This document shows positions 6,490 through 63,906 of a stretch of DNA of 64,000 bases, in pieces. Source of the stretch: Lingula anatina (Eukaryota; Animalia; Brachiopoda). The notes beneath the pieces were generated by a model that ran no database searches, was not told where the DNA came from, and saw nothing but the letters and a program-made list of their open reading frames with translations. The first letter of the stretch is position 1. Each line of letters opens with the position of its first letter. The stretch covers positions 5,456,001-5,520,000 of the forward strand of contig CM120649.1 in NCBI GenBank assembly GCA_051362555.1, in the 5' to 3' direction. The position numbers and the translations under genes are program-made.

Positions 6490-9400
6490 TTAGCCGTAGC
6501 AACGGAGACGCACTGCACTGTAATAGTAATATCTGACGTATCGCCTACCGTAGCGGTAAATGACAACGTATCGACGAAGAGTAATACGGCGATAGTAACA
6601 ACCGCGCTTTTGTCGACTGTTCCCTGAAATGTAAAACACATCAAACAACATAAAACACATTGACCAATTTTAAGTACCAAAGCATATTGGCATCTAATGC
6701 AAAGGCCATACGTAACATTTTTTTGTTCACAAAGTTGAACAATAGAACTCGATCTCTGACTCACGGATTCAATATCTTTATCTTACACGATAAACCAATA
6801 TTGTACCAAAGCTAAAAGAAACGTTATATTGATCAAAATAATTAACCATGTCAGCCGATTCAACCACGATTTATTAACTGGCTGCAATAACTTCTTTCAA
6901 GTTTGATTTTTTTGTATTTCCGAATTTCAGGCCTTTAGACCCAAAGTGCATAGTTCAACACATTGTTTAATAGGATGAAAATATAATAAAAGTAACAAAC
7001 ATTCTTAATATAAGTATGAAGATAAAGGTATGCATGAGTTCCACTGATTCAATGGTCTTGTTGTATTTTTTTCTTATTTAAGAAATCATTTTGACATATT
7101 AGAATAAGTATAATAATGCCTCCTTTCTTTCTCACCTGCCGGTGCCTTAGTGGTGGCGCCATCTACAGCACCGTCATCCTTCTCCGTCAGCCAATACGCC
7201 TCCAGATCCTTACAAAAGTCCCGTATTTTGGGACTAAGGAAGGATCTGTCCTTAATTGGAGAGGAGTTGGCAACGTATTGTGTTTGTTCATCCTCATCTG
7301 GGTTATTGATCTCGTCGTTTCTCTGAAAGAAGAATAATTTAGGATAATGTAACCCTTAATTATCATCCAGATGCCGTCATTGCGGTTTAAATGTTTTTGC
7401 TAGGGCATTATGAGTTCAATGACATATTTTCATCAAACAAAGGCATTATTTTGCTTTATAAATGTTAAAATCTTAAATAAGACTTTTAAGAAAAATCGCT
7501 GTCAAGGTTTTGGAGTACTATAGTGTCATTAAATTAACGGTGATCGTTGGTTCTTAGGTAAAAGAGAAACTTGAGAAATCGACTTTAACCCAAAATCGCA
7601 ATTATGACGTCATGTTAATTAATTAATGTTAATTAATTTAGTCACTGAACACTGAAGATTTATTTATTACCCAAAAAAATGTATGTAAGCAGTAAATAAG
7701 GAGTTTTGGGCGATGTGTGGCAATATGCTAAAGCTACCCGTCAAATGTCTATTTCAAGTATTATCATACAGTTTTCCATATTCAGTAAGCAAACGTAAAT
7801 AGAATTGCTCGTTCAACATTTAATGCTCTATGGTACTGGTTGCCTCAATCAAACAACACTTTAATCAAATTCGTCATTTTCCACGGATTGTTAAAGAGGG
7901 TGGGGGTGGGGGGGGGGGGGGGCAGTGGCCTCAATTTTGTGATAAAACTTTGAATTTCTGCATGGAGTTGGAAAACATTTGAATCTTTAAAAAATACTTA
8001 CAGCCTTTTCAAGACTGTTGGCCACGTCCTTGCTGTCAGCCTCGTCCGACTTGTTCATTGGCGTCACGTAGCAGGCAAACCTATTGTTCATCTCCATTTT
8101 GTACACCACAAGACCCTAAAATGGTGATTATGAATACCTTTATTCTTTTAGGCTGCAACAATAAAGAAAGTAAGTCATTGCAGTTATCTGGGTCATGTAA
8201 TCATACTTTCTCTGCCGATAACCAGAAATATTCTGTTCAGTAAGATTCGGCATCATGGCATCCAGAATTTTGATTTTAATAAAGGAAATATGACGCTGAT
8301 AAGGTTACCTGTATATTTTATACCCCGAATTAAACAACTGATTCTTACCATTTAATACTTCAAAAACTTTAAAGTGCTGTTATTAATATTTTGGTTTTAT
8401 CTTACCCTTGGGTTATCCATGGCAACGTGAAATCGCTCATCTGGAACGTTGTACACGGTGACATTGTCCTTGACATTGACCTTAATATTCTCATTTTCAC
8501 TCGTGCCGTCTTTGTTAGTGAAACGAAGGTGGTACTCCTGAAGAAAGACACCTTATTACGTTGATATTTCAGTGTTTTTTTGACGTTACTGTCGCGTTAG
8601 TACGCCATTGACAAGTGCCACATCACAATGACGCCAGAATCTGTTACACCAAACGAATGAATTATGAAAAAGTAGAACACATGTCATTAAAACAAAACAG
8701 TATTGATAAAAACAATAGAAACAGACATGGAATGTAAATAAATGGAGACTTCAAACATAGTATACTACAGTTAGTATGCCCACCTTCCACACATCTTGTG
8801 CTGCATTGTTAGAGATGTGAACTGCTCCCAATATTCCACCGACAGCAACAGCAACAACAACAATGACAGCAACAGCAACAATGATGTACTTCTTGTACGA
8901 CGCCTTGATCTGAAATCAAAAGTTTATGTATGAATCAGTCAAGGTGGCCAACATTTTGAAGACATTTTTAAAATGACTCACAAGCACTTTAAGTAACTTC
9001 ACATCATGTCTTTGTTTACCTCGTAATTCTCTAACCCCCTTTTCCAAATTCACATGCATTTGAAGTAACTTTACGTAATGTCTTTGTTTGGAGTTCGTTT
9101 GGCATTAATTCTTTATAACCCCTTTTCTCTTATACATCATGTTAAGTCTAAAGAGGTTAAGTCAACTTGTTTGGTAGTCCGTTTGAGGACTAAGAATCCC
9201 TTTGTCTTGGTTTACCAGTACCAGTATGATAACAGGAGTTCGATTCCCCACAACTAGTTACGACGGTGTCCGCATTATTCACCTATTTGTATATTTCACT
9301 CTTGACTTAATTTGGTCGGTTCCAGACGGACATAGTTTTTAATGTGACCTTCAACATCGTATCACAACATTTCCATAATTAATAGTGCAGTTTATGTTTA

Positions 9401-10240
9401 TAGATTTTGTATAAAAAAAGTCTTAAATGATTTAAATCAAATTTCAGCTGCTGATGAAGAGAAGAAGGAAGAGGCTCCTGCAGCAAAAGAGGAGTCCGGC
9501 GGTCTCTTTGATCTCTATTTGCCTGGATAGTCTCTTTCCCCGAGGAAGTTTAGATAGACATCAAAATGTTTGAGACATACAGCGATCTCAATGAACTAGA
9601 TTAAAATAAAATACAATAAAATGAAATAGAACAAAATAATGCTTCATTTTTATGAAATTAAACTTTCTCATTCAATGTCTGTATCATACTTTCGATAGGT
9701 TGGCTTTTCGAACATCCTCGTTTCTATCATTCGTTTTCTCATAAATTCCTGTTTGCTGTATTTAAGAATTTTTGAATCTCTTTTTTTTCCTTAAAAGGAT
9801 AACAACTCTTCGTATGAGATCTATATTTTACTATAAATACACAGTAAAAAAACTGACGAAAATATAATAATTTCTATTTTACCACAAAAACGGCAGTTAT
9901 AGCAATTATTCTTAAATCTGTGTTTGTCTTCCAATCACGTGACCTCCATAGATGGCTATACTCTGTAATTATCTCATAAGAGATTATTACAAAAACACTT
10001 CTCATAAAAAAAGGCGAGACTAACTTCGAATGTAGAAATGGATTCATTAACCATCAGTAAGTATGGAAAAATTATCATTTACACCAGGAAAATTCATTTT
10101 TTGGCCCAAATGAACAGTTGTTATCATTTTAACTTAGTATCCTTGCCACGTACCTCAGCGTCAGTTTGTCGAGGAGACGCACTATCCGTGACAACGGTCA
10201 CGCTTGGGTCGATCGACTTCTCGTTCACGGTTGGCAACAT
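6490..10240 (-). CDS. BRICHOS-domain precursor G1 (259 aa); predicted mature peptide GCYYRRITLRRYVVIYRYGRRYVRYYYYSAVRLRCYG (37 aa, 2 Cys)
   Basis: Six GT-AG exons: 10240-10154, 8909-8784, 8537-8406, 8115-8002, 7322-7136, 6623-6490 (intron phases 0,0,0,0,1); open throughout. Membrane anchor [29 protein letters not shown] hallmarks AMDN, FACYVTPM, DFCKDLEAYWL; RQKR furin site; TATAAAA at 10314-10320. Most divergent paralog. Confidence 0.9.
9448..9512 (+). pseudogene. Fragment resembling the C-terminus of acidic ribosomal stalk protein P1/P2
   Basis: After tttcag the sequence reads ADEEKKEEAPAAKEESGGLFD, like the P-protein tail (EEKKEE...EES-DDDMGFGLFD) with the DDDMGF part missing. It lies in G1 intron 1 on the opposite strand. 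Confidence 0.55.
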
Positions 10241-10687
10241 CTTGAAAACGCACCGATGTCGTAATAACACGAGCAAACCTTTGGAAATGATGACAAGGAA
10301 GATTTAATTTGTCTTTTATACCTGCCGAATAATTGGCAACCTGCCAATTGTCTTGCAAACCTTTGATACGTTTTGTTTACTCAATCTTCATTTCCAGGGA
10401 CGACTTTACGAAGAACTGGATTTCATCTTATCCTTTAACGCGTTCATCGCTTGAAATCACGTAGCAAAATTTCAGTATGTAGTGAAGATTAAAGTCACAA
10501 CGGTGATATTCCAATCATTTTTTTTTTCAGATAACGCAACCGGGAAGTAGTGCTGTATTTACCAACTGAATGTTTGCAGTAGCGAGAAAGCGTTTTAAGA
10601 TGTACTAGTAGTATGATGTAATGCGTAAGTGTATACACACACAGTGAAGTGCAAAATACCCAGTATGTTTGTGCTTTGGATATTTGA

Positions 10688-10689
<2 letters not shown>

Positions 10690-10732
<43 letters not shown>
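10690..10732. repeat. (GA)n microsatellite
   Basis: Direct reading. Confidence 0.95.
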
Positions 10733-62528: not shown

Positions 62529-63334
62529 TAACGCTCGGACCTGGGAATGGCCTCAACTGAAATTTCCCCAGGTGTAGTGACTGTTTTTGGTGGAAGAGAT
62601 CAAAAGAGCGAAATGACTATAATGAGGCCAAAGTATTTCTACAATTTTAGAGTCGGCACCGGGTTTCCATTTTCTGTCATCTGAAAGGGGTGTATCTTCA
62701 ATTACTTAAATAAATTACTCTACTGAGATTTTTGTTTCTAATTTTGGTTTCTCTTCCGTGATTGAAAATGTGATTTAAAGGCAGAGACAAATTGTATAAC
62801 ACTACCGTGTTATATAAGTGTCTAACACATAACGTAGATAACGTTATTTGGGGTGTAACAGAAGAACTGACCAACGCCCAATACATATGACTCTTACCAT
62901 AAGATTGAAGGTACAGGGCTTACATGTGCATAAAAGGACAAGGAGATAAGTTACATAATCAGTCTATAAATTTTAAAAAGTGTAACTATCAAATCTCTCT
63001 CTCTCTCTCTTCACGGAAAGTCACTGCAACTTTTCGTTGCCTTTAACCTCAGCTCCTCCTTTTTTAATGTCCACGGACTTGCATCATTTTCCTTTTGGCA
63101 CTTGAGTGGTTTGATAGACCCCCAATTAACACGTGTAAAAGAGCAGATTATTTGCTAAATATATATTTGGCATCGGCGTCAAGAGCAAATTAACTAAAAC
63201 ATTTTTTCTAGTTTTCTCGAAATGAATTTTACACGTTTTGTATTGTGTTGTTCAAATAACCTAACGATTAGTCAGATACTTCAAAAAATACTTACGGTTT
63301 TTCTTCCTTGTTGTCATGTTCTTAAGAGCAGTGC

Positions 63335-63377
<43 letters not shown>

Positions 63378-63819
63378 AAAGTTTCTCACCTCATCAACAT
63401 ATGAAAACGCTTTTTATTTCTGCCTATGAACTTGGCAGACATTGCTCCGTCTTTTGTATGGAAAACTTGTTTGTCAAAGATCACTTTTGTGCCTTGAATT
63501 TGGTTTATTTCACCTTTTGTATCGTGTGAATACTTATTAAAATCACCCAACCATTGATCAGATACTTAAAAAAATGCTTAGGGTTTTTAACAATTTTTTC
63601 CTGGTTGTCGAAAACTTTCCCACCACATCAACATATGAAAGCGCGTGACAGTGTTTTTTCTTTGGAATCGGAAACCTGTTTGTCAAAGATCTCCCTCCAT
63701 GATGTCAGCTAAAATAAGAGGGTACGCCCAGCTCGAAGCAGACGGCGAACTCGATCGGTCGGAAAAAGTAAAGCCTTGAGTGCTGCTCTCTGATACAACA
63801 ATTTTGACATACTTTCAAG

Positions 63820-63906
63820 ATGCTGCCAACTGTCAGTGAAAAGTCTGCCGAGCCAGGAGTGACTGTCATCACAGACGGTGGGTCCTCTGGACGTGACGGC
63901 GCTGAG
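63820..63906 (+). CDS. BRICHOS precursor G8, exon 1 only (remainder would lie beyond the window)
   Basis: [29 protein letters not shown] followed by a GT donor; differs from G7 exon 1 by one residue; flanks are an inverted copy of the G7 promoter region. Confidence 0.85.

Follow-up and report, generated by a model that had tools for sequence, protein, structure and literature searches.

The antimicrobial peptides (AMPs) that marine polychaetes make from BRICHOS precursors, namely arenicin, alvinellacin, capitellacin, abarenicin, nicomicin, the HfBRI peptides and AmBRI-44a, have a common precursor design: a hydrophobic N-terminus, an acidic BRICHOS pro-region, a dibasic or furin site, and a cationic, Cys-containing C-terminal peptide. 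The same design is found in an array of genes in a 64,000-nt stretch of the genome of the brachiopod Lingula anatina (assembly GCA_051362555.1, contig CM120649.1), which is called the window below and whose own numbering is used for all coordinates. A 2019 review limits the known BRICHOS-AMPs to polychaetes (PMC6780910), and polychaetes alone are named for them in PMC10608444. In one worm, Heteromastus, the 13 BRICHOS peptides described are 18-91 aa long and contain as many as 11 Cys, 5 of the 13 HfBRI peptides having transmembrane precursors (PMC10745061), and AmBRI-44a of Arenicola contains four disulfides (PMC11767717). The alvinellacin gene has six exons, and its introns are in phase 0 except for the last, which is in phase 1 (PMC4002450, legend of Fig. 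S6); its tandem copies recombine, the chaperone diversifying and the peptide being conserved (PMC5431198). Single beta-hairpin AMPs are given as 11-25 aa long, with a charge of +1 to +8 and a preference for Arg (PMC13001179). The BRICHOS superfamily, in which 13 groups are defined, is recognised by two conserved Cys and a conserved Asp (PMC9627735).

The window carries six intact genes (A, B, C, D, E and G; Table 1), arranged in tandem on the - strand with six exons each, and the cationic, Cys-rich hairpins that these BRICHOS precursors would release are probably host-defence peptides that attack membranes. The repeated - strand units were first seen by a six-frame scan and a self-BLAST of the window, the copies were located with the exons of the first gene, and the splice sites were set by inspection. 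The reading frame is open in all six genes, the precursors are 255-269 aa long, and 30 of 30 introns are GT-AG, in agreement with an earlier note on this DNA, which had described six intact genes with all six exons. Exon lengths of 87, 126, 132, 114 and 187 nt give the intact genes intron phases of 0,0,0,0,1. A 5'-truncated copy (F), an inverted copy represented by exon 1 only (H) and two exon-6 relics accompany them. Thus, of the "at least eight paralogs" counted earlier, six are intact and two (F and H) are partial, and the peptide is visible in seven of the eight. Chance open reading frames or an artefact are ruled out by the 30 canonical introns, the RefSeq models and the spliced reads.

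The precursors belong to the BRICHOS superfamily. With exon 5 alone, five of five queries match Pfam BRICHOS (PF04089) above the curated cut-off (25-30 bits), and the full RefSeq models pass in eight cases out of eight (34-51 bits), so that the identity proposed from the letters alone is borne out by Pfam. In the alignment, C130 and C190 of the BRICHOS domain are invariant, and the Asp of the MDN motif (D112) is present in every row that reaches it. The remaining layout is also that of the superfamily, with an N-terminal hydrophobic segment, a convertase site and a C-terminal peptide that is beta-prone in its predicted fold. The exon-5 profile and the full-length profile retrieve the same 13 proteins, all of them RefSeq models of Lingula anatina labelled "uncharacterized" or "leukocyte cell-derived chemotaxin 1-like" (LECT1-like). 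RefSeq contains peptides B, C, D and E without any change while the pro-regions differ at a few residues, and the window therefore probably represents another Lingula individual or assembly. Five exon-6 queries found no meaningful family in Pfam. The nearest atlas clusters are those of chondromodulin/tenomodulin (0.90), a match that stems from the BRICHOS part; an atlas search with peptide D alone gave no usable match.

The RQKR site followed by a peptide of 35-46 aa, which the earlier note placed in exon 6, is present in all six intact genes; one of 23 RefSeq models is without the site. The window and RefSeq together contain 29 site-bearing precursors and 18 distinct peptides. All six intact-gene peptides lack Asp and Glu and have more Arg than Lys. 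The described richness in Arg, Tyr and Cys has exceptions: peptide C lacks Tyr, of which there are 11 in peptide A and 10 in peptide G, and peptide A has only 2 Cys. The pro-regions carry a net charge of -3 to -10 and are 64-86% identical among the paralogues, which agrees with the conservation of exons 1-5 reported previously. At 24-53% identity the peptides do differ, but to call them "very different" is an overstatement because five of the six keep a homologous six-Cys scaffold, C2-C7-C14...C23-C32-C35. Peptides B and C have four extra Cys in the loop, and peptide A retains the outer Cys pair only. The frame indicates that all window peptides that have it share descent from one Cys scaffold. 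At the other end of the precursor, the Kyte-Doolittle hydropathy reaches a peak of about 3 from residue 38 in all six proteins, after a short N-terminal tail, a pattern that fits a type II membrane anchor.

Four coded RNA runs (X1, X3, X4 and X7) were mapped at 85% likeness to positions 25600-30900, which contain gene C only. Spliced, very abundant transcripts of the gene family occur in one of the four runs. In X7, 40,753 of 11,053,536 records (0.37% of the reads) fall on the gene C stretch, the depth on exons 1-5 is in the thousands, and joints 1-2, 2-3, 3-4 and 4-5 are spliced. Just 43 X7 reads are at least 99% alike to gene C, and hence most of the reads come from paralogues or from a diverged population. 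The commonest exon 5-6 junction in this run is of the G type: 2,821 reads run on past exon 5 into the start of an exon 6 that is in frame and matches gene G at 23 of 23 bases tested. Their frame, RQKR-A-C-Y, is the one in which the earlier note expected spliced transcripts to enter exon 6. A C-like exon 6 is present in X7 at a depth of about 250; among the matches listed, it differs from gene C in at least 11 codons; 7 of these differences are replacements, and the two that fall in Cys codons leave the residue unchanged. Gene C's own exon 5-6 joint is absent among the X7 joints listed, the reads ending at a repeat there. X4 has few reads on the expected strand, six C-type exon 4-5 joints, and no listed differences in the exon 6 of gene C.

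In the predicted structures the peptide is one long hairpin docked on the BRICHOS sheet. The AlphaFold model of the E-type precursor P0005 shows peptide E as strands 223-243 and 246-266, with a local predicted local distance difference test score (pLDDT) of about 84 compared with 46.9 for the whole model; peptide B, modelled alone, consists of strands 2-18 and 25-41 (pLDDT 80.8). The beta-hairpin named in the earlier note is in this way predicted for two of the six peptides, B and E. The register of peptide B pairs C2 with C41 and C14 with C29, which suggests cross-strand disulfides. Foldseek places proSP-C BRICHOS (2yad) in the top six rows for the low-confidence P0005 model (probability 0.97-1.00, E 0.05-0.18) and finds no match for peptide B at E up to 0.001; PDB sequence searches gave no match for the precursor, nor for the peptides at E up to 10. 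In ESMFold2, peptide E on BRICHOS residues 70-203 scores 0.70 (three runs), and the best of three controls scores 0.02; the contacts agree to at least 79%, and the partner pLDDT is at least 76. In the calibration of the docking mark, which is free of peptides, 51 of 78 solved complexes attain it, as do 2 of 108 mismatched pairs.

Variation is distributed unevenly along the genes. Distances among B-G are 0.03 in exon 4, 0.19 in exon 5, 0.35 in intron 5, 0.42 in exon 6 and 0.47 in the 3' untranslated region, and the nearest neighbour shifts from exon to exon. Fourfold sites of exon 4 show no difference among B-G (0 of 108). Between A and the others, 1 of 89 such sites differs in exon 2, and 37 of 51, 26 of 49 and 28 of 43 differ in exons 1, 3 and 4, respectively; all these counts are of pairwise positions, in which the pairs are non-independent, and D is omitted from exon 2. 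The proportion of synonymous differences (pS) is 0.61 in the peptides and 0.28 in the pro-regions, and the pooled ratio of nonsynonymous to synonymous proportions (pN/pS) is 0.69 versus 0.38. It is likely that exon-level gene conversion homogenises the constant anchor and chaperone exons, while exon 6 and its flanks would escape conversion and diverge on a fixed Cys frame, and the array as a whole would turn over by birth and death of copies. What moves between copies thus appears to be the constant part and not the peptide. The "swappable effectors" of the earlier note, in the sense of unrelated peptides exchanged within a cassette, are rejected, as the peptides descend from one scaffold. Anchor exon 2 (8784-8909 and the other copies) is about 96% identical even when the divergent A is included, and the introns on both sides of it are about 50% different.

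Precursors similar to those of Lingula occur in a clam, in annelids and in amphioxus, as judged by sequence. When 1.84 billion representatives are searched with a profile, 110 matches are obtained, 108 of which are new; 76 of these 108 have R-x-K/R-R in the C-terminal half, and in 32 of the 76 the tail is +4 or more. The 20 matches that were looked up include other Lingula genes, Owenia, Lamellibrachia, Branchiostoma and turtle SP-C-like proteins. Cationic tails rich in Arg, Tyr and Cys are carried by the BRICHOS precursors P0031, P0049, P0052, P0057, P0067, P0075 and P0131; a protein of Tegillarca granosa is in the same cluster as P0031, and P0075 and P0131 are from Branchiostoma lanceolatum. 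Precursors with such tails, including P0031, P0075 and P0131, are candidate AMPs outside the annelids. The C-terminal peptide of another protein, P0102, resembles arenicin-3 as tabulated in PMC6780910, and P0102 is homologous to P0005 at E 3e-14, with 26% identity. A quick tree, built from 107 of 118 pro-regions (11 short rows were dropped, and the set is free of named arenicin and alvinellacin precursors), shows the array as a Lingula-only clade (Shimodaira-Hasegawa-like approximate likelihood ratio test, SH-aLRT, 99) that is sister to another Lingula gene (96). The data do not identify the array as an arenicin orthologue. A profile of the peptides finds Lingula proteins only, and this, together with a tail of 35-46 aa, is why a chondromodulin orthologue is rejected.

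Taken together, these data suggest how the peptides are most likely produced and how they act. The membrane-anchored precursor would enter the secretory pathway with the BRICHOS domain holding the hairpin, and the acidic pro-region might mask the charge of the peptide and prevent its aggregation there. A furin-type protease would then cut at RQKR, cross-strand disulfides would staple the hairpin, and peptides A, E and G, whose last residues are G, GK or GR, might be amidated. Like arenicin and alvinellacin, the free peptides, which are rich in Arg and aromatic residues, would bind to the anionic membranes of microbes and make them permeable. The Lingula precursors are likely to work in the same way as the polychaete BRICHOS-AMPs.

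A number of observations weigh against this interpretation. Coding exons have no depth in X1, do not exceed a depth of about 2 in X3 and are thinly covered in X4, and expression is therefore restricted. The absence of Asp and Glu, correctly noted for the window, does not extend to all 18 distinct peptides, since two of them, both found in RefSeq only, contain these residues and have a net charge of only +1 and +3. The nested symmetry of the Cys is not significant compared with shuffles, 9-18% of which are equally tight, and so the disulfide ladder remains a prediction. In models of other BRICHOS proteins, the groove of face A holds the mature peptide (PMC9714404), and the docking result may therefore stem from likeness to them. 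The earlier note also proposed a comparison of dN/dS in exon 6 and in exons 1-5. The ratio exceeds 1 in only 1 of 15 pairs, with alignments uncertain, synonymous sites near saturation and 3 of the 15 pairs saturated; together with the pooled pN/pS of 0.69, this falls short of showing positive selection in exon 6. The six-exon phase pattern may be general to BRICHOS genes. In the quick tree, whose backbone is weak, the array is not grouped with the arenicin-3-like P0102. Finally, a BRICHOS domain, a furin site and a hairpin also occur in the non-antimicrobial Bri2, whose Bri23 peptide is listed as being without antimicrobial activity (PMC6780910).

Might the hairpins be structural instead? The BRICHOS domain would then hold an aggregation-prone, Tyr/Arg-rich hairpin until secretion, whereupon it would polymerise or be cross-linked as a self-assembling component of the shell periostracum, the pedicle cuticle, mucus or an adhesive. 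The clients of BRICHOS domains are generally amyloid-prone (PMC9714404), and the many Tyr of peptides A and G, an expression level that ranges from very high (one run) to almost nil (two runs), the chondromodulin/tenomodulin neighbours in the atlas and the LECT1-like label of some RefSeq copies would all suit such a role. It is nevertheless unlikely: 18 distinct peptides, the turnover of copies and the relics are not easily explained by it, net charges of +10 to +15 are hard to explain structurally, and the atlas neighbours reflect the BRICHOS part and not the peptide.

Two other roles can be considered. Hypervariable, disulfide-rich peptides behind a conserved pro-region are the pattern of the conotoxins. 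The resemblance of the Lingula precursors to it, and the report that alvinellacin shapes the epibionts of its worm (PMC4002450), would fit a defence that is not mainly bactericidal, in which the peptides deter predators, parasites or foulers, or select the surface microbiota, through lysis or receptor binding. This is quite improbable, as there is no pointer to a eukaryotic target and the composition fits AMPs that act on bacterial membranes. The hypervariable mature part, the sample-restricted expression and a C-like peptide whose alleles diverge from one individual to another might also be expected of ligands in recognition or signalling, between gametes or between self and non-self, the variability then representing specificity and not defence. 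A high content of Arg and aromatic residues combined with very high transcript abundance would, however, be atypical of receptor ligands, and a role of this kind is very unlikely.

The membrane-attacking defence role can be extended into a bolder proposal. Lingula might possess a library of hairpin antibiotics, double in length and laddered by disulfides, that diversifies on one universal BRICHOS chaperone, the exons of which are homogenised by gene conversion. Read-through splicing would join the 5' exons of one gene to exons 5-6 of its neighbour, so that orphan units such as F would be extra effector cassettes, and the array would be one tip of an undescribed radiation of BRICHOS-peptide defence in brachiopods, molluscs, annelids and amphioxus. 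Taken as a whole, this proposal is rather unlikely to be correct.

The design, repertoires of many peptides and BRICHOS peptides of great length are already published, and what is new here is a variant of that design in the brachiopod phylum. In the literature searched, an antibiotic role for BRICHOS peptides is reported only from marine worms. That literature, outside of which most subscription papers fall, contains no description of the Lingula array and no paper on BRICHOS in brachiopods, the sole match to BRICHOS and Lingula concerning lung disease; the text supplements of PMC9627735, figures excluded, do not mention Lingula. The family can to this extent be called undescribed, as the earlier note proposed, although public gene models exist in RefSeq under the labels given above. 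The further claim that the peptides are longer and more disulfide-rich than the known ones fails against Heteromastus (PMC10745061) and AmBRI-44a (PMC11767717). If the defence role is true, the range of BRICHOS-chaperoned AMPs widens beyond the annelids to include brachiopods, and the homologue search makes bivalves and amphioxus probable additions. The 18 distinct natural peptides, about twice as long as known single-hairpin antibiotics, would be a resource, and a near-constant BRICHOS domain with many natural clients would be a test system for beta-hairpin recognition, which bears on anti-amyloid work.

Several features of the locus concern individual copies or the DNA between them. A tandem 99-bp duplication in intron 3 of gene B (18516-18706) repeats part of the exon-4 acceptor region and might act as a decoy splice site, and exon 2 of gene D has a 9-nt in-frame deletion. 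Copy F is a candidate pseudogene or a candidate alternative 3' cassette for gene G. The RefSeq isoforms P0003 and P0007 fuse the 5' exons of one paralogue to the 3' exons of another, with an E-to-C order that agrees with the window; these chimeras may reflect read-through splicing or a modelling artefact. No exons were found in the window upstream of the relic near 44.8 kb. A transposon-like insertion (45100-46490), the ends of which match 56124-56379, separates this relic from F. An inverted duplication (52904-53511 versus 63395-63997) places exon 1 of H opposite G, and between G and H there are retroelement-like remnants at 54000-54750, 57990-58460 and about 60000-62250, recognised by eye from sequence and higher GC. 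Downstream of gene A, at a distance of about 1.5 kb, lies a tRNA-Glu(TTC) gene (4951-5023, - strand), and a pair of inverted repeats of about 710 bp with 87% identity (776-1486 and 1748-2456) resembles a non-autonomous DNA transposon.

Table 1. Genes, partial copies, relics and mature peptides of the Lingula array, in window coordinates.
Feature	Position	Strand	Description
Gene A	10240-6490	-	259 aa; most divergent paralogue; RefSeq relatives P0007, P0014, P0015
Gene A exons	10240-10154, 8909-8784, 8537-8406, 8115-8002, 7322-7136, 6623-6490	-	
Mature peptide A	6603-6493	-	GCYYRRITLRRYVVIYRYGRRYVRYYYYSAVRLRCYG; 37 aa, net +10, 2 Cys
Gene B	20345-17623	-	268 aa
Gene B exons	20345-20259, 19727-19602, 19275-19144, 18559-18446, 18165-17970, 17774-17623	-	
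Mature peptide B	17754-17626	-	GCYRYRCRRVRRICICIRCLFCKRCRRVCIRRVVWVWCHRCRY; 43 aa, net +15, 10 Cys; identical in RefSeq P0001
Gene C	28925-25830	-	269 aa
Gene C exons	28925-28839, 27863-27738, 27370-27239, 26608-26495, 26347-26146, 25978-25830	-	
Mature peptide C	25958-25833	-	42 aa, net +12, 10 Cys; identical in RefSeq P0003
Exon-6 relic	~31110-31215	-	second half of a G/P0009-type peptide; in-frame stop
Gene D	34620-32133	-	255 aa
Gene D exons	34620-34534, 34249-34133, 33840-33709, 32858-32745, 32588-32402, 32263-32133	-	
Mature peptide D	32243-32136	-	ACSWYRCIRIQRICFRIGSRRYCFYRITRGYCKRCY; 36 aa, net +10, 6 Cys; identical in RefSeq P0006
Gene E	41185-37975	-	268 aa
Gene E exons	41185-41099, 40535-40410, 39775-39644, 38809-38696, 38538-38352, 38135-37975	-	
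Mature peptide E	38115-37978	-	ACYRIRYICRVRIRICIRVRIGFRWYCRYRYTYVFRYCYRYRCFGK; 46 aa, net +14, 6 Cys; identical in RefSeq P0005
Exon-6 relic	~44745-44830	-	second half; translates VPFCYYRYYYGWCYRFHWGK-stop
Partial copy F	47862-47128	-	nearest to D
Copy F exons	exon 5 47606-47411, exon 6 47258-47128	-	exons 5 and 6 intact and in frame; exon 4 without 5' end and acceptor
Copy F peptide	47238-47131	-	ACSWCRCIRIQRICFKIGSRRVSFYRITRGYCYRCY; follows GQKR (not RQKR)
Gene G	53082-50681	-	257 aa
Gene G exons	53082-52996, 52341-52216, 51953-51822, 51474-51361, 51204-51018, 50808-50681	-	
Mature peptide G	50788-50684	-	ACYWYHCWRYYCYYYGYYRYCFYRYYRLCYRCYGR; 35 aa, net +6, 6 Cys; one residue off RefSeq P0004
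Gene H, coding exon 1 alone	63820-63906	+	head-to-head with G; remainder would fall beyond the window

The cathelicidin clusters of hoofed mammals consist of tandem genes in which the exons of the pro-domain are conserved and a hypervariable last exon encodes the cationic effector. The likeness of the Lingula array to them is an analogy only, since the cathelin pro-domain is unrelated to BRICHOS. Chondromodulin/tenomodulin and Bri2 share with the Lingula precursors a type II anchor, a BRICHOS domain, a furin site and a Cys-containing C-terminal product, and the LECT1-like label in RefSeq and the top atlas matches can be traced to the likeness with chondromodulin/tenomodulin. The mature parts of these proteins are conserved and single-copy, and the C-terminal domain of chondromodulin/tenomodulin is a larger, conserved one with eight Cys. 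The Lingula peptides have no similarity to the mature parts of either chondromodulin/tenomodulin or Bri2, and unlike the eight-Cys domain their tail is only 35-46 aa long.

With tachyplesin, protegrin, gomesin and theta-defensin the Lingula peptides have in common an Arg-rich, cationic antiparallel hairpin closed by disulfides, which is predicted here. Further traits of the single beta-hairpin class that they share are an excess of Arg over Lys, a minimum of one Cys pair and a single hairpin (predicted for two of the six). By the limits given in PMC13001179, they nonetheless exceed it in length in all six cases (more than 25 aa) and in charge in five of six (more than +8).

The polychaete BRICHOS-AMPs remain the closest systems. 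The intron phases of the Lingula genes are those of the alvinellacin gene, compared by phase and not by aligned position. As in alvinellacin, tandem duplication appears to be accompanied by recombination between copies (PMC5431198), and the membrane-anchored precursor is like that of some HfBRI peptides (PMC10745061). The Lingula genes differ in that the host is a brachiopod and that, in the quick tree, their clade is separate from the arenicin-3-like P0102. Their predicted single hairpins are 35-46 aa long with up to five disulfides, whereas polychaete hairpins are 20-25 aa long with one or two. In Lingula the peptide varies and the chaperone appears homogenised, which is the reverse of what is described for alvinellacin (PMC5431198).

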